Below the pieces are notes generated by a model. That model had not been told where the DNA came from, did no database searches, and saw only the letters and a program-made list of their open reading frames with translations. This document shows positions 3,864 through 55,015 of a stretch of DNA of 56,022 bases, one piece after another. Source of the DNA: an uncultured bacterium (lineage in GTDB: Bacteria > Bacteroidota > Bacteroidia > Bacteroidales > JACABE01). Position numbers and translations under genes: made by a program. Each line of letters starts with the position of its first letter. The first letter of the stretch is position 1. The stretch covers positions 1 to 56,022 of the forward strand of contig CAIWDQ010000383.1 of the NCBI GenBank assembly GCA_903911455.1, written 5' to 3'.

Positions 3864-5135
3864 ATGAATAGAAAAAATGTTTTATTCCTGCTTGTCTTTG
3901 CAGGGATCTTTAATTCTTTTGCTGCGATTGCTCAAAAGGACACTACTAATAGTGGCTGCATTAGTATAACAAAGATAATTCCACCAAGCGTTAAGTTCTC
4001 AGGCTTCGTTAACTCTGAAATATTCTACGATACCCGACAAACTACTGGAGGTAGAGAAACTCTTTTAATGCTTTATCCGGCTGCTAAATCTCCAGACATC
4101 CATGGTTTTGATTTAAACAGTAAAGGTAATTTCAATCAATTGGCAATGATGTCGCGACTTACTGCTAATATTACCGGCCCAGACGTTTTAAATGCAAAAA
4201 CAATTGGTGTAATAGAAGCTGATTTTACCGGTACTTCTGATGCTACCAACAATATTTTCAGATTGCGTCATGCTTATATCAAACTTACATGGAAATCTGA
4301 CGAACTGTTAATTGGTAACTACTGGACTCCATTTGATGTAGCAGAAATGATACCTGCGGTAATCTCTTTAAATACTGGTGCTCCATTTCATTCATTCTCA
4401 CGTAATCCGCAGGTTCGTTATGTTCATAATTTTAATAATCTTAAATTAATTGCGGTAGCTTTATCGCAAAGAGATTATGCAAGTAATGGCCCTCTTGGTG
4501 TTTCCTCTGTTTATATGAGAGATGCAATTGTGCCAGAGATGCATCTACAGTTGCAATATAATATAGGTGGACACTTATTTGGAGTTGGAGGCGAGTATAA
4601 ATGCATACAGCCACGTTTGGCTACTTATAAAAATATAGCTTCAGATGAGAAATTAGAATCTACTGCAATAATAGCTTTTGCAAAACTTAATTTCCCTAAC
4701 CTTGATATTAAACTTCAGGGGTCATATGGTGGTAATATTTCTGATCATACTATGATAGGTGGTTATATTGAATCATCTATTGATACTATAAGTGGAATTA
4801 CTAAATATGCTAATGCTAATTCATTGGATATATGGACAGATATCTCAACTAAATCAAAGAAGCTTAATGTTGGTTTGTTTGCAGGCTATTATAAGAATAT
4901 GGGATACTCATCTGATATAGCAACAGGAGGTAAGTTTTATGGTAATGTTAATAATATTGGTTATTTATATCGCATTGCCCCAAGACTTACTTATACAGCT
5001 GGTGCTGTAATGTTTGCTCTTGAACTGGAATATACTGCCGCTCAATATGGCACACCCGATATAAAAGGGAAAATGATAAATCCATACGAAATAGGTAATT
5101 TTAGAACACTTTTTGGTGCTTTTTATTTCTTTTAA
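3864..5135 (+). CDS. outer-membrane beta-barrel porin-like protein
   Basis: 423 aa. Signal peptide ending AAIAQ, alternating amphipathic strands rich in Y/G/N, C-terminal aromatic residue (..GAFYFF). Confidence 0.6.
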   Translation: MNRKNVLFLLVFAGIFNSFAAIAQKDTTNSGCISITKIIPPSVKFSGFVNSEIFYDTRQTTGGRETLLMLYPAAKSPDIHGFDLNSKGNFNQLAMMSRLTANITGPDVLNAKTIGVIEADFTGTSDATNNIFRLRHAYIKLTWKSDELLIGNYWTPFDVAEMIPAVISLNTGAPFHSFSRNPQVRYVHNFNNLKLIAVALSQRDYASNGPLGVSSVYMRDAIVPEMHLQLQYNIGGHLFGVGGEYKCIQPRLATYKNIASDEKLESTAIIAFAKLNFPNLDIKLQGSYGGNISDHTMIGGYIESSIDTISGITKYANANSLDIWTDISTKSKKLNVGLFAGYYKNMGYSSDIATGGKFYGNVNNIGYLYRIAPRLTYTAGAVMFALELEYTAAQYGTPDIKGKMINPYEIGNFRTLFGAFYFF

Positions 5136-5179: not shown

Positions 5180-5209
5180 GCTGTCTTAAAACTGAGGCAG
5201 CTTTTTTTT
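5180..5209 (+). terminator. rho-independent terminator after the porin gene
   Basis: Stem GCTGTCTT / GAGGCAGC (with G-U pairs) followed by T8. Confidence 0.6.
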
Positions 5210-5352
5210 ATTTTCATTTTTTGCTGGTTTTAATCCTATACAAAAATACAAATAATTTTAGGCAATCTTAAAAGAAGGGTAAAATTTATTTTTTTATTTT
5301 AAGATTATTTGTAAATAACCTATTAGGGTTGAAGAATAGCTTTAAAGCTGAT

Positions 5353-5604
5353 ATTAATACCCTCCGAGCCTATTAAAAGTACCTAATAGCATCTTTTAAT
5401 ACCCTCGGAGCCTATTTGCCGACCTTAATTGGGTATTTTAATACCTTCTGAGCTACTTTTAATACCCTTAGAGCATATTAAAAGGACCTAAAAGCATCTT
5501 TTAATACCCTTGGAGTCTATTCGCCGACCCTATTTGGGTATTTTAATAACTGGCGAGGGTATTTTAATAGCAAGCGACCCTATTTTTGTACCCTATTATC
5601 AATT
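5353..5604. repeat. 21-bp phased degenerate tandem array A (12 units)
   Basis: Counted units all 21 nt, for example TTTAATACCCTCGGAGCCTAT and TTGCCGACCTTAATTGGGTAT. Units 1-4 recur as units 6-9 (105-bp higher-order period). Confidence 0.85.
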
Positions 5605-5759: not shown

Positions 5760-5848
5760 GCTCACCCTTCAATCCCGAGAGCATTGCGATTCGGGATGAG
5801 ACCCTCTGATTAATTCCGCACGTGCGGTACTCTAACCAACTGGGCTAA
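5760..5848 (-). pseudogene. decayed tRNA-Asn copy with two palindromic insertions
   Basis: Aligns to the tRNA-Asn at 6160-6233 in the D arm, TTAATCAGAGGGTCTCA and the 3' acceptor. The 5' anticodon stem is replaced by the palindrome CCGCACGTGCGG and the T loop by TCCCGA..TCGGGA. The acceptor and D stems no longer pair. Confidence 0.7.
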
Positions 5849-6115
5849 TACTCCAGTTGGAATAAAATCAATGTTTATTAGTTGGAGAATAAGATTCCTG
5901 CTTTTTTGTTTCTTGATAAACTTTTCTATTTTATCAGCATCCCCTTTCTTTTCTGACACCTGAAATATAGCTTTTAATTCCCAAGGCTTGTATTTGCCGG
6001 TAAATTTATCAACTTCATTAGAATTATGTTGTCCTAACCTTTTCCAAGGGTCAGAAGAATGACCTAAATAATATTTATCAGTAGATAATGAATAGATAAT
6101 ATAAATGTAATGCAT
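5810..6115 (-). CDS. GIY-YIG nuclease family protein
   Basis: 101 aa. N-terminal IYIIYS..KYYLGHSSD..RL.QHN is the GIY-YIG signature. The last ~13 codons run into the tRNA-like sequence. Confidence 0.75.
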   Translation of the reverse strand: MHYIYIIYSLSTDKYYLGHSSDPWKRLGQHNSNEVDKFTGKYKPWELKAIFQVSEKKGDADKIEKFIKKQKSRNLILQLINIDFIPTGVLAQLVRVPHVRN

Positions 6116-6155: not shown

Positions 6156-6159
6156 GTTG

Positions 6160-6233
6160 CTCCCCCTTCAGGACTTGAACCTGAGACCCTCTGATTAACA
6201 GTCAGATGCTCTAACCAACTGAGCTAAGGAGGA
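6160..6233 (-). tRNA. tRNA-Asn (anticodon GTT)
   Basis: The reverse complement folds as a cloverleaf: acceptor TCCTCCT/AGGGGGA, D arm GCTC-AGTTGGTTA-GAGC, anticodon stem TCTGA/TCAGA with loop CTGTTAA, T arm TCAGG-TTCAAGT-CCTGA, discriminator G. CCA is not encoded. Confidence 0.9.
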
Positions 6234-9602: not shown

Positions 9603-9626
9603 TTTTTTTAATATCTATATTAAAAA

Positions 9627-9657
9627 GGCAGGGAGAGTATTCTTCCTGCCTTTTTTT
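9627..9657 (+). terminator. rho-independent terminator after the EF-G paralog
   Basis: Stem GGCAGGGAG / CTTCCTGCC followed by T7. Confidence 0.7.
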
Positions 9658-9869
9658 ATTTGTAGAGTCTCTCATTAAGGCGTCTTTAGTAAGAAGGCAC
9701 GATGAAGCAATCTAATTAGGCTTTTAGTTATTTAGGATATTGGAAGGAAATTATTGTGTAATAAATTGTATAGGAGAATTAACATTTTTATTCTTTAAAA
9801 TCGAACGAAGTTTAGCTTTTCGAATATGTTATATGCTTAATATATAAGTTTATATGCTTCCAACCCACT

Positions 9870-10142
9870 CACGAATGCCACGGTATTGAGTTTGTTTGTG
9901 CCGGAATCAAGTTCGTTTTCAACCGTTCTTAGCTTGCATCTAAGGGCGTCGAGAACGAATGCAACGGTGCTGAGCACGAATGCAACGATGTCGAGTACGA
10001 ATGGAACGATTCAGAGCTCGAATGGAACAGTACTGAGCTCGAATGCAACGGTGCTGAGCACGAATGGAATGGTGCTGAGCACGAATGGAACGATGCAGAA
10101 CACGAATGGAACAGTTCAGAGCACTAATGGAACGGTTCAGAG
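9870..10142. repeat. 21-bp phased degenerate tandem array B (13 units)
   Basis: Consensus CACGAATGSAACRRTNYNGAG. Units 2-4 are divergent but keep the 21-nt phase (each ends in AG). Confidence 0.85.
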
Positions 10143-10195
10143 CACGTTTTATTTGATGATAAATTTTTGTGTTCAACTATGTAGTCTATGTGTCC

Positions 10196-10307
10196 TTGCG
10201 GGCTTGACCCGCAATCCCAATCATTAACACTAGTCCTTTCAGGAGATTCCGTGTCAACCACGGAATGACTTTACAACTTTCATGGGATTCCGTGTCAAGC
10301 ACGGAAT
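10196..10307. repeat. three REP-like palindromic hairpins
   Basis: TTGCGGGCTTGACCCGCAA (10196-10214), ATTCCGTGTCAACCACGGAAT (10246-10266) and ATTCCGTGTCAAGCACGGAAT (10287-10307). Confidence 0.7.
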
Positions 10308-10610
10308 GACGGCATGGTATATTAAATTTTGTAATAACACTTTGTGTGCTGATAGTATTGGGGTTCGAAATGATGTTGAGGTACTTTTTGAGTTTAATCA
10401 TTTTTGCTTCTTTATTCTTAAATAATTTCAAAATAATAGTAAAAACGCCTGTATTTTGATGTCTATTTCATAAAAAAGCTTAAATGATTTTATGATTAAT
10501 TTTTAACTAAACTCAGTAATCTGTTAATACAATAACATATATAGAAATTTTAAGCTAAAATACCATAATTGCAAGAAAATCTTTTATTTGGAGAATCAAA
10601 AATAATGTTG

Positions 10611-10618
10611 TATCTTTG
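10611..10618 (+). promoter_or_regulatory. -7 box TATCTTTG, candidate promoter with a ~190-nt leader
   Basis: Exact TAnnTTTG match. It is the only one I found upstream of the ORF starting at 10814. Confidence 0.35.
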
Positions 10619-10813
10619 TGAAAAATTAAAATTGAAATCTTTTTTTGAAGTCGAACTCTCGCCTAAATTTATTTATTAAAACATTTAAATTAATCCGAAA
10701 AGTTTTGCTGTAGGTCCCAGCCTAAAAACAGAACCTTGTGTAGGGGCAATGTATTGGACAGCTAAGCTATACTAATGATTTTTTCTTAAACTGTTTATTA
10801 AATAAATAAAACA

Positions 10814-17757: not shown

Positions 17758-17791
17758 AGAGATAAAGACTGGGAGAATTAAGAATTAAAAA

Positions 17792-18477
17792 GTCGAGTGG
17801 GCAAGGGCATTTCAGCCCAAGCCCCTCACAGAACCGTACGTGAACCTCTCGATTCATACGGCTCTTCTAATAAGACAATACATTAAAATGCTCTTCCCTG
17901 TAACAGTTGGCAAAATGTATATCTTACTAGCTAAGCCCTTCGCTCCATCTCCATTACAGAAACTTCATCACTACTACGACTTAGTCCGCAACTGTGTACT
18001 GCATTGGTAGTATAAGTCTCACTGGTTCTCAGCTTGTACTTTTCCCTTTATCTGTCAGCGAATCCTTGGTCGGTAGCTTTAATGGCAGACTAACATCAGT
18101 ACACAATACTCTCCTGTTCCATATAAAAGCCCAAATAACGTTCATGCCTCCTTTACATCGGTTGCCGCATAACCAGTAAATCAGGTTTCCGTTATGCTCT
18201 TTAAGCCCTCTCTTAACTAGGACGTTTTGACAACAAGTACTTAATCACAACATGTCATCAGTGGTTCACTTGCGTTCATCACCGTTATTCATACCTGATG
18301 GATTATTCCACCTTTTCCTTGACCGTTCAATACCTTAACTTTTGGCTACAGCACCGCAAGGCGGTTTGCAATATCTGCCTGCACAGCTATTGCGAAGGCT
18401 CATCTCTTTTCAAAGACCCCTTCATCTTTTATACAGCATGTATAAAGAACTATTCGCTCTTTTCCTTCAGGACACAC
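17792..18477 (-). mobile_element. ORF-less group II intron (~686 nt)
   Basis: Minus strand: 5' GUGUG at 18477. Domain V at 17831-17864 reads GAGCCGUAUGAAUCGAGAGGUUCACGUACGGUUC. Domain VI has a bulged A (GAGGGGC..GCCC-A-CUC) and the 3' end is ..GAC at 17792. There is no minus-strand ORF of 60 aa or more inside. Confidence 0.75.
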
Positions 18478-18498
18478 TTAAGAATTAAGAAAAAAGAA

Positions 18499-18530
18499 AG
18501 AGCCATTATCAAACAAATAATAACGGCTCT
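18499..18530 (-). terminator. terminator-like hairpin just upstream of the intron insertion site
   Basis: Minus strand: AGAGCCGTTAT-loop-ATAATGGCTCT followed by TTCTTTTTTCTTAATTCTTAA and then the intron 5' end. Confidence 0.55.
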
Positions 18531-18547
18531 TTATATTAACCCCACCC

Positions 18548-18588
18548 CTGCCTAACGGCAGGCAGGTAACCTCCCCTAATAGGGGAGG
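18548..18588. repeat. two short GC-rich palindromes
   Basis: CTGCC-TAAC-GGCAG (18548-18561) and CCTCCCC-TAATA-GGGGAGG (18570-18588). Confidence 0.6.
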
Positions 18589-18652
18589 AATTTGAGTTAT
18601 AATATTATTAATTCTTAATTGTCTTTAAACTTTAGGCATTTCAAACTCCAAA

Positions 18653-18681
18653 CTTTAGGCACTATTGCCTATTGCCTAAAG
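18653..18681 (-). terminator. hairpin CTTTAGGCA..TGCCTAAAG downstream of the RND permease stop
   Basis: 9-bp stem. It overlaps the CTATTGC heptamer run (18661-18695) that abuts the stop codon. Confidence 0.45.
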
Positions 18682-18692
18682 CCTATTGCCTA

Positions 18693-25548: not shown

Positions 25549-25767
25549 AAATCTGTTTTCCGGATTTGTATAAACAGCCCTGTTTAATGAAATCCGTAAA
25601 ACAGATTTGTATAATCAGCCCTGATTAATGGAATCTGAAAAATGCTTTTGATTGGGTAGGACTACCTGATGAAATTGGGAAAAAACTTTTGCCCGGGTAA
25701 GGCTACCTGATGAAAAGAATTTAGCAGATTTGTATAAACAAGACTTTTTATAAGATTTTTAATGACC
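25549..25767. repeat. 41-bp phased degenerate array C (~5 units)
   Basis: GATTTGTATAA starts at 25563, 25604 and 25727. CTACCTGATGAAA starts at 25662 and 25703. The near-palindrome AAATCTGTTTTCCGGATTT (25549-25567) has an inverted copy at 25590-25608. Confidence 0.7.
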
Positions 25768-35924: not shown

Positions 35925-36150
35925 AATACGATTTTTTTAAATTGTTTTTAAATTATTTGAAATTATGCTTTATACTAAGACAAATAAAAATGGCATTTGG
36001 TTGCCTGAGGTGTTAGAATTATCACAAATAAATATTAATTAAAAACTAATATTTAAGAATTTTGATTTTAAATGAGAACAAGAAACCGACAAGTATTAGT
36101 TTACTCTCTTACATATCATCTTAAAATGACAGTTTAACCTCTTATATATT

Positions 36151-36252
36151 TCACCGAAAGGGTAAACAGTGCCTTTTTATTCTTTTCTTTCTTATCTTAT
36201 TAATAAATGAGATTTAATTTAAGATAAAAAAGAATCAATTCGTAATTCGTAG
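36151..36252. repeat. composite intergenic module, copy 1
   Basis: CACCGAAAGGG, then hairpin TTATCTTA-N20-TAAGATAA (36192-36227), then an A-rich tract, then heptamers AATTCGT AATTCGT (36237-36252). Confidence 0.65.
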
Positions 36253-36399
36253 CTACTACCTCCCAGTTTGTCAGATGTAATTTGCAATTTTTATCAATTT
36301 TGGTCATTGTTTTTATATAAATGCAATTATTTCAATATAATTTTAATGAATCTTAATTAATAAAATTAGAATTTTGATGAATCAACAATCAATTCTTAT

Positions 36400-36630
36400 G
36401 AAGCGTTACGCCACTTAAATGACATTTTACGACCCCGTAAAACTGCATTTAAGTGGCGTAAGATTGCATTTAAGTAGCGAAACATTGCATTTAAGTAGCG
36501 AAGCGTTTCATTAGAATGGCGAAGCGTTTCATTTAACTAGCGAAACGTGTCATTAGAATGGCGAAGTGTTCCATCTAACTAGCAAAACGTTTTATAAAGA
36601 TAATGAATCGCATCATTATAAGCGTTTTCT
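36400..36630. repeat. 21-bp phased degenerate tandem array D (11 units)
   Basis: Units such as ATTGCATTTAAGTAGCGAAAC and GTTTCATTAGAATGGCGAAGC. All counted boundaries are 21 nt apart. Confidence 0.85.
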
Positions 36631-36654
36631 GTTTTATTTTTTTTATGATTTTCT

Positions 36655-36747
36655 TTATCTTATTACAAATTTCATTTAGTTATAAGATAAAGAAAGGGAA
36701 GAAGAGAAGGCAAATTAAGAATTAAAAATTAAGAATTAAGAATTGAA
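36655..36747. repeat. composite intergenic module, copy 2 (partial)
   Basis: Hairpin TTATCTTA-N20-TAAGATAA (36655-36690), a purine tract, then five AATTAAG-type heptamers (36713-36747). Confidence 0.65.
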
Positions 36748-36822
36748 AGACAATCTTAAATATTTATATGATAAAGACCTAACTTCTTACGTACGGAGTT
36801 AGGTCTAACGTATTTATTTTAT

Positions 36823-36955
36823 CACCGAAAGGGAAATTATTGTCTTCTTTAGGCACATCTTTCTTATCTTATTAATAAATGTAATTTAATTTAAGATAAA
36901 AAAGAGAAAAGAACTAAATCAATTAAAAATTAAGAATTAATAATTAATAATTAAA
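36823..36955. repeat. composite intergenic module, copy 3
   Basis: CACCGAAAGGG (36823-), hairpin TTATCTTA-N20-TAAGATAA (36864-36899), a purine tract, then five AATTAAn heptamers (36921-36955). It is preceded by the hairpin GACCTAACT..AGTTAGGTC (36776-36805). Confidence 0.65.
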
Positions 36956-36991
36956 GAGATAAATCTTCTATGCTATAATCACTTTAGATAT

Positions 36992-39185: not shown

Positions 39186-41555
39186 TTATTTTGCAATGAT
39201 AAGTTCAGGAACACCTTTAGTAATAAAATAAACAGCTAATCTGGGTGTATCATCGTCAATATACTTACAATCAAAGGTAATAGTATGCTGCCCTGTTGAC
39301 ATTAAAGGAAATTTAGCCACAGTTAGAGTATTGATAAGCTTACCTTTGGCATCAAATACCAGTAATTTGTCGCTACCATCAGTCACTATCTTTTCTCCTC
39401 CATTTAATTGAGTTGGAATCTTAAGCTCATAGTAGTTATCTATCACCATAATAATGTCTTTGATGGTCCCTTTAGTCTTTTCAGCAACTATTCTGAAAGA
39501 AAGTGCCTGTTCATTATCGTTATTTGTATAATTCCATGAAGAGTTTACAGGTTCTCCGGGCTGTTTAAATTCTTTTTCATGAACAAATCCTCTAGATATA
39601 TGGTATTGAAGCAGATTCCATGATTTATCATTAACTTTAGAAAGATGAAATTCAAACTTTGGGTTCTTCAACAATTGTTTTTGTTCTTCACTAAAGGCAT
39701 GAGAACGGCGCGCCGACTCCCAATTGTTGATAGCATCCAGTAATATATCAGTGTTTTGGTTTTTCTTAGCATCTTTATACCTCACAACCATAGCAAAACC
39801 TGCATCATAACCGGCCGCACGTGCTAACATCCACTCCATCTCTGACAAAGTAGTGTTGGCTGTAAGTAAATACCAGCCTAACATGTGTGGCAAGTAGTTA
39901 CGATCAAATAAACCCTGGTTGTCTATCCTGTATTGTTGCATACTTTCGTTAAAACCACCGTACCAAGGCTCTCCCCAGTTGCAATAAGTATTAATATGCC
40001 AGTAAAAAGGCTCTGAATTAGAAGTCCCGTTGATAACTGTATGGTCTAAATTGTCATAAAACTCCTTCGCAAACACTTCAATACCATAATCACCCTGTCC
40101 GCAAGAAAGACTTCCTTCTGAACCATCAAAATCCATCTGACAAATACCTGTTTCATTAAATATTTTAGCAAGATTACGTGCAATTTCCTTGTCTAAATCA
40201 ATATTTGGAAAGAAAACTTTGTAAGGATGATCCATAAGTTTTGCAGCTTTTTCCCCTTTTTTATGTTGAGAAGTATAAGTTCCAAAAGCTCCCCTCTGAC
40301 AATTCAGTAATTGATAAGGAGCTATAGAAGTGACAGTCCTGTAACGAATCAATTCTTTCCCAATCTTTATAGTATGAAGATTGTTTTGTTTTTCATTATT
40401 AAAATATTCGGGAGAAAGAACCGTAATTGTACTGTCTTTATCACTAATATCATTATCTAAATAACTAAAACCAGTAATAGCAAGACGATCATCGGGAATA
40501 GGAGTAACATATTTATCATCAGTAGTTATAAAATTAGATAAAGTATGAACACCTAAATGAATTCCAAGCTTTTCGGCTTTCTTAACACAAGCTTTTACAC
40601 CTTCTTTGTTGTGAAAAAAAGTATAAACAGTGTCAAAATCGTAATGCCCCCAGTTCTGGAAAGGACCTTCGTGATAAAGAGTCATCAAACCAGCACGTTT
40701 TGTGTAAGCTAGCATCTCATCTATATTATTTTCATCAAAGTTAGAGATAATATAAGAGCGTCCGGTCTCAGGCGAAACCTTAGTCCACACACCATTAATA
40801 AGTGGATGAGGTAAACCCTCGGCTATTTCAATTTCACCAATAGTATTTAATGCATCTTTTTCGTAGCAACCAAAAATAGCTATCTTACTTCCCATAACAT
40901 TCTCATTAGGCATAGCATCTACAGGTGCATTCATAAATTGCTTGTTCCACACATCCACATTTCTAGGCTTCGAACGATTAAGAGCAAAAGCTTGCAAAGT
41001 ACTTCCCCAGCGTTGTTTGATAGCAGTACTGCTTCTTGAAATATCCGAACCTTCGTTATTCAAAAGCTTCCCGCCAAGGGTCTTAACATTAAGCACCTGA
41101 ATACCGATGGCAAAGATTTCGTTACGGACTACACCAATAATTTCGCCAACTGTCTTTGAAATTGTGGTAGGATAAGGGCCCCATATAACTGCCTCAATAA
41201 GATCGGGTTTGTCAACGTTAATAAGTTCAATAACTAGATGAGTTTTCTTCTCACTTACCTTAAGAGTCAGCTCTACTTTATTATTAGGATAAACTAAAAC
41301 TAAGGTTGAATCCATTTTGTTATAGATCATTGAGTCTGGATTCTCCATCCCTTTAGCCGTTTTAATACTTATAATCGGAGCTAAAGTGTCCTGATAAATA
41401 TATTCATTTTTATCAATTGTATTATATAACGACCTGATGTTGCCTTGATCGCTAATCATAAGACGAAGCTTGCCTGCATTTAAAAACAACTGGGCATTAG
41501 CATTAATATTTATAAGAAACAATATAAAAACTAGTGTAATTATGAGCTTTTTCAT
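39186..41555 (-). CDS. secreted hypothetical protein, possibly glycoside-hydrolase-like
   Basis: Signal peptide MKKLIITLVFILFLININANAQ starts at 41555 (the track start at 41591 overlaps the promoter box). About 789 aa. No family recognised by eye. Confidence 0.65.
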   Translation of the reverse strand: MKKLIITLVFILFLININANAQLFLNAGKLRLMISDQGNIRSLYNTIDKNEYIYQDTLAPIISIKTAKGMENPDSMIYNKMDSTLVLVYPNNKVELTLKVSEKKTHLVIELINVDKPDLIEAVIWGPYPTTISKTVGEIIGVVRNEIFAIGIQVLNVKTLGGKLLNNEGSDISRSSTAIKQRWGSTLQAFALNRSKPRNVDVWNKQFMNAPVDAMPNENVMGSKIAIFGCYEKDALNTIGEIEIAEGLPHPLINGVWTKVSPETGRSYIISNFDENNIDEMLAYTKRAGLMTLYHEGPFQNWGHYDFDTVYTFFHNKEGVKACVKKAEKLGIHLGVHTLSNFITTDDKYVTPIPDDRLAITGFSYLDNDISDKDSTITVLSPEYFNNEKQNNLHTIKIGKELIRYRTVTSIAPYQLLNCQRGAFGTYTSQHKKGEKAAKLMDHPYKVFFPNIDLDKEIARNLAKIFNETGICQMDFDGSEGSLSCGQGDYGIEVFAKEFYDNLDHTVINGTSNSEPFYWHINTYCNWGEPWYGGFNESMQQYRIDNQGLFDRNYLPHMLGWYLLTANTTLSEMEWMLARAAGYDAGFAMVVRYKDAKKNQNTDILLDAINNWESARRSHAFSEEQKQLLKNPKFEFHLSKVNDKSWNLLQYHISRGFVHEKEFKQPGEPVNSSWNYTNNDNEQALSFRIVAEKTKGTIKDIIMVIDNYYELKIPTQLNGGEKIVTDGSDKLLVFDAKGKLINTLTVAKFPLMSTGQHTITFDCKYIDDDTPRLAVYFITKGVPELIIAK

Positions 41556-41588
41556 GATACTATTATTAGGTTTGATTATAATATTTGG

Positions 41589-41596
41589 CAAAAATA
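41589..41596 (-). promoter_or_regulatory. -7 box TATTTTTG
   Basis: TAnnTTTG match 33 nt upstream of the ATG at 41555. Confidence 0.45.
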
Positions 41597-41603
41597 CTAA
41601 AAT

Positions 41604-41638
41604 AATTATGAATTATGAATTATGAATGATGAATTGAG
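41604..41638. repeat. 7-bp microsatellite (AATTATG)3 AATGATG AATTGAG
   Basis: Five heptamers immediately upstream of the -7 box. Confidence 0.75.
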
Positions 41639-41909
41639 ACTTATATGATTGAAAGTAAAGGTGAAAATAAATAATTTTTATAATATACATTTAAACAAGA
41701 AATAAAAGTTGTGCCTAATCATCAATACATTTTCATTTATTAATTCTGTTATATAAAGACTTTCTTAAATACAAATTAAAGTTATCGAAAAATTATTTCA
41801 CTACTGTGAAAAAAGTAGTAAGTAAAAACATACTTTTATGGTTCAATAATATGATTTTGGCTAATTTAAATCTGAATTATGTTAACTAAAAGCTGAGCTT
41901 TATGCTATT

Positions 41910-42140
41910 ACGCTTGCTTTTACCCTAAACACGCTTGCTTTACCCTGAAACACGCTTGCTTTTACCCTAAACACGCTTGCTTTTACCTGAAACACGTCTG
42001 CTTTTACCAATAACACGCTTGCATTTACCTAAAACACGTCTGCTTTTACCAATAACACGCTTGCATTTACCTAAAACACGCTTGCTTTTGCCTATAACAC
42101 GCTTGCTTTTACCTAAAACACGCTTGTGTTACCCTAAAGT
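41910..42140. repeat. 21-bp phased degenerate tandem array E (11 units)
   Basis: Consensus ACGCTTGCTTTTACCTAAAAC. Every unit is 21 nt. Confidence 0.9.
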
Positions 42141-42237
42141 AAGCTATCACGTACTAAATTCAAGTTGTAGTTAGCTAAATGCAGTTGTAAAGTCCCTTAT
42201 ATTAAGTGATATCTTAGTAAAAGAAGATCTGTTTTGT

Positions 42238-43362
42238 TTAAATAAATAATTCGGCAGCTATACCATCCGCTATAAACTTGCCGGTTCGGGTAAGATAATA
42301 AGAAGTTGCATTCTCTTCTATAGTTTTAAATAAAAGAAATTGTTTTATATTCTCATCAAAATGTTGATTGTATTCTTTATTGAAATGATGTTTCAGATAC
42401 TCTTTATTAATCCCCCAGATAGTCCGCAACGAAGTAAGTATATACTCGTTATATTGCTGTTCAGTACTTAAAATCTCACTTTCAAAAGGGATTATTTCAT
42501 TGTTGATAGACGAAATATACTTTGTAATATTAGCTGTATTCCACTGTCGTGAATGGGAATTGAAGGAATGTGCCGAAGGACCTAAGCCAAGATACTTTTT
42601 CTGGCGCCAGTAATTACTGTTATGTATCGAAATAAAACCATCTTTACAGAAGTTAGATATTTCGTAGTGGATATAATTATTCTCAGTCATCCTGTCCATC
42701 AAAATTACAAACTGACGAATACCTTGTTCTTCGTCAACAGGCTTAGCTTTGCCTTTGTTAATAAGATGATGCAGAGCAGTACCTTCCTCAATAGTAAGAC
42801 AATAAGAAGATATGTGTGGGATGTTTAAATCAAAAGCTATTGATAGATTATCATTCCACCTTTGGTCACTAGCACCGGGAATGCCATATATAAGATCAAT
42901 AGTAATATTATTAAACCCAGTATCCTGTGCACGCTTAATGGCTTCAATAGCTTGTTCTGACGAATGAATACGATTAAGATACTCAAGATCTTCCTTAAAG
43001 AAAGACTGAACTCCCATACTAAAACGATTAACTGGAGTGTTCTTTAATTCAATGATCTTTTCTTTGGTAAGATCATCGGGATTGGCTTCCAGAGTTATCT
43101 CAGCATCCTTATTTATAGTATAATATTTATAAAGTTGATTGAAGATTGCATCTAAATTATCTTTGGTAAGAAGCGAAGGCGTGCCACCTCCAAAGTAAAT
43201 AGTATTTATTTCTTCATCCTTAAGATAAGTATGTTGTAGAGCAATCTCCTTTAACAAAGCATCAATAAAAGCTTCCTTAGTTTTACCAGAAGCCGATGAA
43301 AAGAAATTGCAATAATTGCATTTCTGCTTACAATAAGGAATGTGAATGTAGATGCCGGCCAT
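42238..43362 (-). CDS. hemW: radical SAM heme chaperone HemW / HemN-like protein
   Basis: 374 aa. N-terminal IYIHIPYCKQKCNYCNF (CxxxCxxC radical SAM cluster) with HemN-like length and C-terminal domain. Confidence 0.85.
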   Translation of the reverse strand: MAGIYIHIPYCKQKCNYCNFFSSASGKTKEAFIDALLKEIALQHTYLKDEEINTIYFGGGTPSLLTKDNLDAIFNQLYKYYTINKDAEITLEANPDDLTKEKIIELKNTPVNRFSMGVQSFFKEDLEYLNRIHSSEQAIEAIKRAQDTGFNNITIDLIYGIPGASDQRWNDNLSIAFDLNIPHISSYCLTIEEGTALHHLINKGKAKPVDEEQGIRQFVILMDRMTENNYIHYEISNFCKDGFISIHNSNYWRQKKYLGLGPSAHSFNSHSRQWNTANITKYISSINNEIIPFESEILSTEQQYNEYILTSLRTIWGINKEYLKHHFNKEYNQHFDENIKQFLLFKTIEENATSYYLTRTGKFIADGIAAELFI

Positions 43363-43364
43363 TT

Positions 43365-43413
43365 AATTATGAATTATGAGTTATGAATTATGAATTATGA
43401 ATTATGAATGAAA
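43365..43413. repeat. 7-bp microsatellite, seven AATTATG-type units, in the hemW 5' leader
   Basis: Starts 3 nt from the hemW start codon. Positions 43385-43410 are the perfect reverse complement of 43517-43542. Confidence 0.85.
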
Positions 43414-43516
43414 ACAATATAAATTATGAATAAATGAAGACTTAGTTTTAGAAACCTAGATTTTTTTCTGCCTTTAGGTTGGCATTGAAAGTACTTAAGT
43501 TCATATAAATTCCCCC

Positions 43517-45075: not shown

Positions 45076-45381
45076 TTTATTTTGTTTTAAGTTTTGAGTC
45101 GTTAAAATTACGAATATATTTTAAAACGGAGCATATATATTAATAGTATGTATGAAATTAATTTAAATATGTCATAAAGTAAACTTCTATTAGAATTTAT
45201 TATAGATGCTATTTACAAGAAGCTTCTTTTGCTACAACAGAAAGTTATTGAGTAGAACCAACTAAATACTTCTTTAACTATTCTTTTTAACTCAAATAAC
45301 ATCGTAAGATGTATTAAACTGAATATATTTAATTATATGATTATATTATTTATTTAGCCATTGAATATTATTTTTTTAAAA

Positions 45382-45570
45382 AGTGTTGAGAACGTCGGGG
45401 AGAGTGATGAGAATGTCAGGGGAAGCTGCTAGAACGTCCAGGACAGCTGCTAGAACGTCTGGCGAAGCTGCTAGAACGTCTGGCGAAGCTGCTAGAATGC
45501 CCCCTAAAGTGTTGAACATATAGTTTTAAGCTGCTAAATATACTTTTTAAGCTGCTGAATAAACAGCTTA
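45382..45570. repeat. 21-bp phased degenerate tandem array F (9 units)
   Basis: Consensus AGCTGCTAGAACGTCTGGCGA. Two identical central units, progressively degenerate flanks, all 21 nt. Confidence 0.85.
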
Positions 45571-45717
45571 ACCATTGAAAGGGAAATGATGCTTAAAAAG
45601 CGGAAGTTTTCAACATCCTTTAATGTCGAAAAGAAAGTTTTTGTGCACATTTAGACTGTTTGCTTTAAAAAGCATGATAATTTATATCTTTTTTGGGATT
45701 TACATATAAATAATATC

Positions 45718-50753: not shown

Positions 50754-50826
50754 AATTACGAATTACGAATTGCGAAATAAAATATAATTTCAAATTAATA
50801 GAAGTTCAATTTGAAATTCGTAATTG
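50754..50826. repeat. AATTACG heptamers with inverted partner and nested palindrome
   Basis: AATTACG AATTACG AATTGCG (50754-50774), the inverted copy GAAATTCGTAATT (50812-50824), and the inner palindrome ATTTCAAATT..AATTTGAAAT. Confidence 0.65.
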
Positions 50827-54427: not shown

Positions 54428-54727
54428 GGTGTGGTTGAATAAAATCTGAATTATGTATCATTGAAAGTCGGGATGGTTGAAATAACTTTGGTTCATGTGT
54501 CCCGAAAATTTGCGGAAGGTGAACCAACTTGGAACTATACTACACAAAAATGTACGGTAGGTGAACTAAGTTCAACTCATCTTACATGAAGAATATTTTT
54601 AGTGAACTAGGTTTAGGATACTATCACCAACTTTTCGGGGCATGTGAATTAGACTTAGTTCCCCTTGCCCGAAAAATCAGGACAGGTGTTACCACTCAAT
54701 TATACACCTTATTATAAAATGGGGCAC
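54428..54727. repeat. 42-bp phased degenerate array G (7 units)
   Basis: GGTGAAC-like heads at 54428, 54475, 54518, 54560, 54601, 54643 and 54685. The second halves carry CCCGAAAA / TTTTCGGGG in both orientations. Confidence 0.7.
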
Positions 54728-55015
54728 GATAATATGTATAATTACAGTATTCAAATATATCAAGGGAACAACAATTCAGTTTATTAGTATAGCAATAAGA
54801 ACTAAGGGAATGTAAATCTAAATAAAAAGGCGTAACTCAATTTTTAAGTTACGCCTTACGTAATTCTTTATACTTAGTATTTATTTACTAAAAGTAAAAA
54901 GCTGTTAGCTTAAAGTAATTTTAACAACACCTAATTGGGTCGCATCTTTATTAGCCAATAAAAAGAATTGGTTTAGGACATCTATATCACACGACAGTGG
55001 TCACAACTAAATACT

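Follow-up and report, generated by a model that had tools for sequence, protein, structure and literature searches.

Plasmid iterons recur at about 22 bp, and LytTR and AraC direct-repeat sites have a spacing of about 21 bp. On the F plasmid, sopC consists of 12 copies of a 43-bp unit, each of which carries a 16-bp SopB site (PMC3177203). The BrickBuilt element of Porphyromonas gingivalis is built from one 23-nt unit found at 19 loci in 1-23 copies, with a common leader and tail and with terminal inverted repeats (PMC4596501). Subirana & Messeguer (2019) surveyed prokaryotic satellites and found more than 4 per Mb in only 18 of the 119 bacterial species, with unit lengths that vary (PMC6749651). 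Here we analyzed a 56,022-bp contig from an uncultured Bacteroidales bacterium (CAIWDQ010000383.1 of assembly GCA_903911455.1), referred to in full length as the window, in which intergenic tandem arrays share a unit length of 21 bp, or in one case 42 bp, while each array has a unit sequence of its own. Array E (41910-42140) is at the center of this account. By definition the arrays are bacterial minisatellites, that is, variable-number tandem repeats (VNTRs).

Shorter repeats have also been described. Heptamers include the STRR of cyanobacteria and the TAACTGA repeats of Beggiatoaceae, Cyanobacteria and Bacteroidetes (PMC4679880); the same article summarizes Mrazek et al. 2007 as ascribing the heptamer repeats of other prokaryotic genomes to polymerase slippage. 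Borg repeats are presented in PMC9879509 as recently formed, as creating disordered protein regions and as belonging to archaeal extrachromosomal elements. In the literature that we searched, which left most papers in subscription journals outside its scope, we found no description of period-locked bacterial arrays with locus-private sequences.

Period, register and lineage of the arrays

Array E comprises 11 head-to-tail 21-bp units with the consensus ACGCTTGCTTTTACCTAAAAC and a 42-bp higher order, and, like the other arrays, is assigned to no strand. Tandem Repeats Finder (TRF) placed it at 41910-42138, with 11.0 copies and 82% matches. It is located about 100 bp downstream of the stop codon of a gene for a HemN-like radical SAM protein (42238-43362, minus), and about 315 bp separate it from the -7 promoter box, further downstream, of a gene encoding a 789-aa protein (39186-41555, minus).

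When the array intervals were cut into 21-mers, every array remained in register from end to end, decayed edges included. For the 21-bp arrays, autocorrelation had no peaks other than those at lags 21, 42 and 63 (0.52-0.82; background about 0.25), and 21 was the best of lags 18-24 in 192 of 194 sliding 42-nt windows, which covered about 86 units from the window and its relatives, including edge units with as little as about 50% identity. These units contained no net insertion or deletion (indel) despite about 300 mismatched cells relative to the unit consensuses. If small indels account for between 1 in 10 and 1 in 30 of mutations in non-coding bacterial DNA, several length changes would, by an informal estimate, be expected in about 86 units. 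Direct reading of the sequence also revealed several apparent 1-bp shifts that are compensated within the unit, in unit 2 of array E (GCTTT-ACCCTGAAAC versus GCTTTTACCCT-AAAC) and between units 1 and 2 of array F (GTCGGGGAG versus GTCAGGGGA).

These results bear on the original prediction, which was made from the letters of the window alone and had placed repeats of 21 bp, or about twice that length, at seven intergenic loci. Five exact 21-bp arrays (A, B, D, E and F) and a decayed 42-bp array (G) agree with it, whereas locus C has a period of 41 bp and is not phase-locked. The statement that each unit of the five arrays is 21 nt long was upheld by the register and by the autocorrelation. The predicted counts of 12, 13, 11, 11 and 9 units are correct if decayed edges are counted, the well-kept cores being shorter in B (9.3 units), D (7-8) and F (about 4).

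The window has a G+C content of about 33%. It encodes type IX secretion system (T9SS) sorting domains (Por_Secre_tail, CHU_C), and Bacteroidota-type -7 boxes (TAnnTTTG) lie 30-55 bp 5' of many of its start codons; these features identify it as a segment of a Bacteroidota chromosome. Exact-protein look-ups recovered the same sequence from lake metagenomes (BUCK21-1 scaffold_263, an ERZ27313607 MEGAHIT contig and Logan contigs), and NCBI was also among the protein sources in a cluster look-up. The arrays are unchanged across independent assemblies, with A, B and D identical in other assemblies, and they are therefore not inventions of the assembler. A species-representative genome collection contained no close relative, the top match to the HemN-like protein having 52% identity. 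Histidyl-tRNA synthetase (HisRS) homologs form a tight clade of 83-89% identity, followed at 72-74% by metagenome-assembled genomes (MAGs) named 'Bacteroidales bacterium'.

Relatives were gathered through exact-protein look-ups. They include a strain that is 99.7-99.9% identical to the window (L016), sequences with 80-82% identity on the 789-aa gene (L018-L021), members of the same 90% cluster for elongation factor G (EF-G; L022-L027, including NCBI assembly GCA_037134755.1), two sequences with 88% identity on HisRS (L153 and L155) and an outgroup at 74% (L156). The lineage sample amounts to 97-118 kb of sequence stretches rather than whole genomes, of which 97 kb (the window and relatives at 80-90% protein identity) entered the period scan. 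As controls, none of them from the lineage, we used 14 loci of other Bacteroidota and 120 metagenome contigs fetched with (AATTATG)x3; outgroup and controls together total 824 kb.

A single scan was applied throughout (3 or more copies, a match of 80% or more, period at least 10). It found periods of 21 or 42 bp in 9 of 10 arrays of the lineage sample and in 2 of 47 arrays of the control (Fisher p = 5.9e-8), where the periods ranged widely between 10 and 65 bp. Loci are shared with window arrays by three arrays of the lineage sample, and the independent loci number at least six. In the relatives, TRF reported 21-bp arrays in L020 (8.2 copies), L021 (9.6 copies) and L022 (4.3 and 11.5 copies), together with a 42-bp array in L022 (4.4 copies); the outgroup contained only heptamer microsatellites. 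The density of arrays in the sample is about 100 per Mb. The predicted excess of 21- and 42-bp periods is thus strong in these 97 kb, and the arrays are real, statistically robust and lineage-specific.

The period is conserved, as had been proposed, and the unit sequences are private. Between arrays at different loci of one genome, all rotations and both strands being considered, similarity never exceeded that of shuffled units, and this permutation test agrees with the proposal that each locus has its own consensus with no common core motif. All-against-all blastn-short comparison of the array-bearing intergenic regions matched corresponding loci only, with no shared flanks, and no leader, tail or terminal inverted repeat common to the loci was found. 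Elsewhere in the window, array units occurred as lone sites only at chance level (unit 13-mers, one mismatch). With unrelated unit consensuses and no common flanks, the arrays are not one dispersed repeat or family of miniature inverted-repeat transposable elements (MITEs), as had also been suspected, and the period was not inherited from one recent dispersed element.

Matches to known elements were equally scarce. The arrays had no Rfam 15 match at the gathering score or at E <= 1. Array E, the sole array queried against phages and plasmids, matched nothing in the phage collection; its only plasmid match, to one Athalassotoga plasmid, was weak and partial (E = 5e-4, 34% of the query) and amounts to nothing meaningful. 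A Pfam scan covered 30 open reading frames (ORFs) of at least 100 aa in the window, every array-flanking gene included; it found no transposase or integrase adjoining an array and no Cas domain among the 30 ORFs. The units abut directly, and the lack of spacers bears out the earlier view that the arrays are not CRISPR.

Individual loci and change between relatives

Among the intergenic regions of the window, the eight longest (639-1211 bp) correspond to the seven repeat loci and to one region with an apparently ORF-less group II intron; the remaining intergenic regions are at most 537 bp long, with a median of about 45 bp. The intron (Rfam D1-D4 and D5/6; 18293-18408 and 17792-17866, minus) is located in a 935-bp region (17758-18692) downstream of an AcrB-like gene. 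It appears to be ORF-less, with no ORF of at least 100 aa that would encode an intron protein between the two Rfam matches.

Array A (5353-5604) has 12 units of 21 bp and a 105-bp higher-order repeat that consists of five unit types, and TRF reported it at 5354-5586 with both period 21 and the 105-bp higher order. It is situated between the convergent 3' ends of a DcaP-like gene (3864-5135, plus) and a GIY-YIG gene (5810-6115, minus), the latter encoding 101 aa directly downstream of a tRNA-Asn (GTT) gene (6159-6233, minus). Array B (9870-10146) contains 9.3 well-kept units (9951-10146) with the consensus GAGCACGAATGGAACGGTGCT and an 84-bp higher order. Four further, decayed units (9870-9953) remain in the 21-bp register, and the array is found 270 bp downstream of an EF-G-like gene.

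Array D (36400-36630) has 7-8 well-kept 21-bp units (36436-36602; 7 copies by TRF), higher orders of 42 and 63 bp and decayed edge units, and lies inside a 1067-bp intergenic region 3' of a sodium:solute symporter gene. This region also holds three copies (36192-36227, 36655-36690 and 36864-36899) of a hairpin module, TTATCTTA-N20-TAAGATAA, and in front of each copy stand a heptamer microsatellite and a stretch rich in pyrimidines. L020 has retained one copy at the equivalent position (5181-5216). The module had no Rfam match and no further copy in the window; being confined to one intergenic region, it was rejected as a lineage probe.

Array F (45382-45570) consists of 9 units in 21-bp register, the unit types forming a gradient around a core (AGCTGCTAGAACGTCTGGCGA) that spans 45410-45497. 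The array was represented in TRF by three overlapping period-21 rows (45381-45571) and separates a divergent pair, a histidine-kinase gene and a 136-aa gene. Array G (54428-54727) has about 7 decayed units of 42 bp. TRF did not detect it; its lag-42 autocorrelation of 0.47 was reached by none of 2000 shuffles at any lag, and it is a genuine but decayed 42-bp array.

Locus C (25549-25767), between a TetR-family gene and an efflux operon, is formed by two adjacent two-copy duplications of different 41-bp units that are rich in inverted repeats. Its autocorrelation peaks at lag 41 (0.58) and reaches only 0.34 at lag 42. The locus does not keep to the 21-bp register; it probably represents something distinct and may be operator sequence. 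Tandem units of 41 bp, one bp under four helical turns, recur in the clade (L153 12697-12857 and 12958-13072; window 25563-25715), and the two arrays of L153 are made of one 41-bp unit with an internal CACC..GGTG hairpin.

The intergenic region of array E contains a further repeat of a different class, a heptamer microsatellite (CATAATT, 4.6 copies; 41604-41635, minus) directly upstream of the -7 box TATTTTTG (41596-41589) of the 789-aa gene, and this arrangement is kept in L021 (4275-4310). Heptamer tracts of CATAATT or CGTAATT (41604-41635, 50754-50776 and 43365-43409) end 6-8 bp upstream of the -7 boxes TAnnTTTG of real promoters (41596 and 50746, both minus). As a general rule, the succession of heptamer and -7 box was discarded, the spacing being present at only about 5 of 128 tracts of at least three CATAATT copies in unrelated metagenome contigs. 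A scan for sigma-70 promoters and terminators around E and F was uninformative. The 789-aa protein (39186-41555, minus) has no Pfam domain and more than 2000 homologs at about 50% identity across Bacteroidota, and is a widespread uncharacterized family.

All three kinds of intergenic region are occupied: A lies between convergent gene ends and C and F between divergent starts, while the neighbors of B, D, E and G share one strand at each locus. The original prediction had placed five arrays (B, D, E, F and G) upstream of a gene start; such a position is not a rule. The flanking genes are unrelated housekeeping, transport and secreted-protein genes, and the only regulator gene adjoining a locus is the TetR gene at the atypical locus C.

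We compared the arrays between strains and species. In strain L016, array E has 9 units instead of 11, through loss of one two-unit block (-42 bp), and array F has 8 instead of 9 (-21 bp); the strain changes seen are thus whole multiples of 21, as the original prediction would have it. Higher-order periods (42, 63, 84 and 105), gradients of unit types and decayed edges are present, as is typical of satellites that undergo unequal exchange.

At two loci, homology between arrays of different species can be demonstrated. Array E and the array of L021 (9.6 copies of 21 bp) are both upstream of the same 789-aa gene, with partly conserved flanks and with the heptamer tract and -7 box in common, and their units agree at 13 of 21 positions, TTTTACC included. 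Array B and an array of L022 (10666-10908, termed L022b), both near EF-G, share the 9-mer CGTTCCATT, which was matched by none of 400 shuffles; the surviving block of this pair reads AATGGAACG, and the surviving cross-species blocks measure 7-9 bp. Array D and the array of L020 (8.2 copies of 21 bp) occupy corresponding positions near the common hairpin module, with no significant similarity between their units. In every case compared, the period is constant between species and most of the unit has been replaced.

Clustering of variable positions within the unit was found in L020 (p = 0.001) and L022b (p = 0.036), approached this level in L021 (p = 0.057) and was marginal in F. The 11 bp that vary least within the arrays of L021 and L022b overlap the block conserved between species.

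Each array-bearing intergenic region that could be compared (9603-10813, 35925-36991 and 41556-42237; against L018-L022) is a synteny breakpoint at 80-90% identity. The genes upstream of array E vary among the species compared, and the window is rearranged around HisRS relative to L153 and L156. A fixed link between an array and a homologous downstream gene was considered as well; it holds for E and L021 but not for B and D, which in the relatives are followed by non-homologous genes.

Explanations for the shared period

The sole property common to all of the arrays is that their units span two, or about four, helical turns, and for this reason we favor a constraint on the geometry of double-stranded DNA. 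The explanation that we prefer, tentatively, is that the arrays are concertedly evolving non-coding VNTRs with a unit length held at whole helical turns, and most plausibly serve as iteron-like phased binding scaffolds. Each array would have started with a unit sequence of its own or drifted to one. Its units would be kept alike by slipped-strand mispairing and unequal recombination, processes that would generate the higher orders of 42, 63, 84 and 105 bp and the gain or loss of whole units. Units of two turns (21 bp) or four turns (42 bp) would face the same side of the helix, so that the arrays could act as phased scaffolds for one or more DNA-binding proteins in long intergenic regions, with a block of about one helical turn being read and the remainder of the unit acting as spacer. 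Known protein-bound tandem arrays have whole-turn periods, and the same layout occurs in iterons, in centromere arrays such as F sopC and in the direct-repeat sites of several regulator families. Where it can be seen, a conserved block of about one turn next to a more variable part of the unit agrees with this picture. Selection on length, protein binding and any regulatory effect are inferred. The compensated shifts and the lack of net indels suggest that length is under selection, rather than that the period was fixed only at birth, and the other periods of the clade (41 and 42) are also near four helical turns.

Several observations weigh against phased scaffolds. For nine or more private unit sequences, either many specific proteins or a single reader of DNA shape would be required, and there is no candidate for a binding protein among the flanking genes; Pfam identified no Rep, ParB, ParR, replication, partition or recombinase gene among these neighbors. 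Occupation of all three intergenic types excludes a fixed relation to promoters. Array E is absent from L018 and L020, which are equally related to the window and in which the -7 box follows a short intergenic region, and is therefore dispensable. In the 21-kb stretch of L153, TRF found 41-bp arrays and no 21-bp arrays. Clustering of unit positions into core and spacer was not significant in A, B, D or E, and the copy-number differences between strains rest on short-read metagenome assemblies and could be assembly effects.

DNA shape gives a divided answer. Curvature was predicted with the Bolshoy-Trifonov wedge model as the ratio of end-to-end distance to contour length, which is 0.39 for a phased A-tract reference and 0.92 for ordinary DNA of the window. 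Strong curvature was predicted for E (0.23) and the L021 array (0.36), and moderate curvature for A (0.52), so that two of the six window arrays are predicted to be curved. By the same model B, D, F and G are predicted to be straight (0.92-0.96) and no more curved than column-permuted controls, and a 10.5-bp A/T harmonic within units is not enriched (combined p = 0.43), which again speaks against the scaffold. The in-phase bending by A/T tracts that had been anticipated is thus not a general property of the arrays, as curvature is predicted only for E, A and L021.

The arrays could instead be functionless satellites that arise from a length-biased process, some quirk of replication, repair or recombination that favors duplications of 21 bp and its multiples, and would then occupy whichever intergenic regions tolerate them. 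The unit sequences are arbitrary and private, the three intergenic types are occupied at roughly random proportions, arrays are gained and lost between close species, and the higher orders, decayed edges and whole-unit polymorphism are classical satellite dynamics. There is no general structural signal in curvature, RNA folding or harmonics. The clade is also rich in heptamer microsatellites, a class of repeat that elsewhere, as summarized in PMC4679880, is ascribed to polymerase slippage. Against this, we know of no mechanism that measures 21 bp. No nascent two-copy 21-bp duplication was found outside the arrays or inside genes, where an in-frame 21 bp would be tolerated. The compensated 1-bp shifts and the absence of net indels in about 86 units are further difficulties, as are the block conserved across species in two pairs and the existence of 41-bp arrays. 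We regard a neutral origin as rather doubtful, although it is the main rival explanation.

We are similarly guarded, considering it a minority prospect, about a broader possibility: that arrays recognized or generated by their period occur throughout the genomes of this freshwater Bacteroidota clade, perhaps hundreds in each, through an architectural protein or complex that acts on two-turn repeats or an enzyme that duplicates DNA in 21-bp measures. If true, such arrays would be an undescribed class of bacterial chromatin element or the product of an undescribed repeat-generating machinery.

Transcribed repeat RNAs, as non-coding RNAs or parts of long untranslated regions that act as multi-site sponges or structured elements, appear unlikely. 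Folding revealed strong self-complementarity in A (z of about -6), the plus strand of G (-4.4), L020 (-3.6), L022b (-3 to -4) and C, and the unusually long intergenic regions could hold unannotated transcripts; -7-like boxes are present at 5581 (plus), within the final unit of A, and at 54759 (minus), upstream of G. However, B, D, E and F have no excess of structure on either strand, and the Rfam search up to E <= 1 was negative. The recognizable -7 boxes are 30-55 bp from start codons and downstream of the arrays, which would place most arrays outside the mRNA. Exact spacing, moreover, matters for the geometry of duplex DNA and not for sites in single-stranded RNA.

A mobile-element footprint or cargo, such as a BrickBuilt-like MITE minisatellite or multi-site transposon ends, is a still less probable source of the arrays. 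BrickBuilt offers a precedent, as an intergenic 23-nt minisatellite of Bacteroidales with conserved and variable unit halves and with spurious ORF calls (PMC4596501), and synteny between relatives breaks at the intergenic regions that bear arrays. Nevertheless, the loci have no leader, tail, terminal inverted repeats or unit consensus in common, no transposase or integrase adjoins the arrays, and array E has no phage match and only the weak plasmid match.

We also consider it very improbable that the arrays are descendants of heptamers, diverged blocks of 3 x 7 nt re-amplified as 21-mers. The arithmetic is suggestive, heptamer tracts are frequent in the same intergenic regions, TRF also reads the heptamer tract at 43365-43431 with period 21, and series from 7 to 14, 21 and 28 are present in outgroup contigs. 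Yet similarity at lags 7 and 14 was at or below background in every array, and a 7-bp harmonic was not enriched (harmonic-3 combined p = 0.44), so that the idea is close to refuted. Beyond plain heptamer tracts the lineage has no arrays of 14, 28 or 35 bp, and it does have 41-bp arrays (locus C and L153), which fit multiples of neither 7 nor 3 and count against a heptamer rule as well as a codon rule. On the same evidence, the suggestion in the original prediction of copying in 7-nt steps has no internal support. The heptamer microsatellite (AATTATG)n is itself spread far beyond the lineage studied: the exact 21-mer (AATTATG)x3 occurs in at least 120 metagenome contigs (L028-L147), with a G+C content of 26-61% among those examined.

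Coding or recently pseudogenized heptad-repeat (7-aa) proteins are the least credible explanation, since a period divisible by 3, ORFs called over arrays of L022 and a 113-aa open frame in array B are set against stop codons that interrupt each of the six frames in A, D, E and G, variation from unit to unit with no codon-phase bias in any array, our own estimate from base composition that about half of 21-bp unit frames would be open by chance, and the lack of a -7 box in the 100 bp upstream of the L022 ORFs examined. The arrays accordingly stand as non-coding, in line with the original prediction. Called genes of 132-173 aa overlie arrays at L022 10550-10948 (132 aa, repeat 'VPFADAN'), L022 18444-18878 (144 aa) and L023 2578-3099, and these calls are probably spurious.

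Bacterial genomes are compact and usually purge non-coding repeats, but here repeats are located in seven of the eight longest intergenic regions of the window. One length rule for all arrays but one, with unrelated sequences, points to selection on DNA geometry alone or to a mutational process that measures length, and neither has been documented genome-wide in bacteria. The arrays thus offer a testable system for how helical phasing shapes bacterial intergenic DNA. On the practical side, ORF calls over such arrays can be spurious, and short-read assemblers can break or collapse at these repeat-rich intergenic regions.

Comparison with known repeat systems

Heptanucleotide repeats resemble the present case in that the window genome has many intergenic 7-bp microsatellites, some of them beside promoters, but the 21-bp arrays lack any 7-bp sub-structure and form a class of their own. 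Borg repeats, as characterized in PMC9879509, are alike in comprising many independently arising, fast-evolving tandem-repeat regions per replicon; compared with that account, the arrays described here are imperfect and intergenic, have one period and persist across species.

BrickBuilt is the nearest described element in a related host. It shares with the arrays a Bacteroidales-type host, a strictly intergenic location, a unit close to two helical turns in length, spurious gene calls and, for some of the arrays, a unit with both conserved and variable parts. The arrays differ from it in their 21-bp unit and, as tested for both properties, in having a sequence of their own at each locus and no common flanks.

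Iterons and centromere arrays are similar in that whole-turn direct repeats have a private sequence in each system, and some of the arrays described here likewise appear to divide into a block and a spacer. Those systems, however, adjoin the gene for their binder (Rep, ParB or SopB) and number one or a few per replicon, whereas the window has about 7 loci in 56 kb, with no such neighbors. With bacterial minisatellites and VNTRs in general, the arrays share intergenic, imperfect head-to-tail repeats of tens of bp, higher orders and whole-unit differences between strains. They are set apart from these by their abundance, about 100 per Mb, and by the combination of nearly always the same unit length with unrelated sequences.

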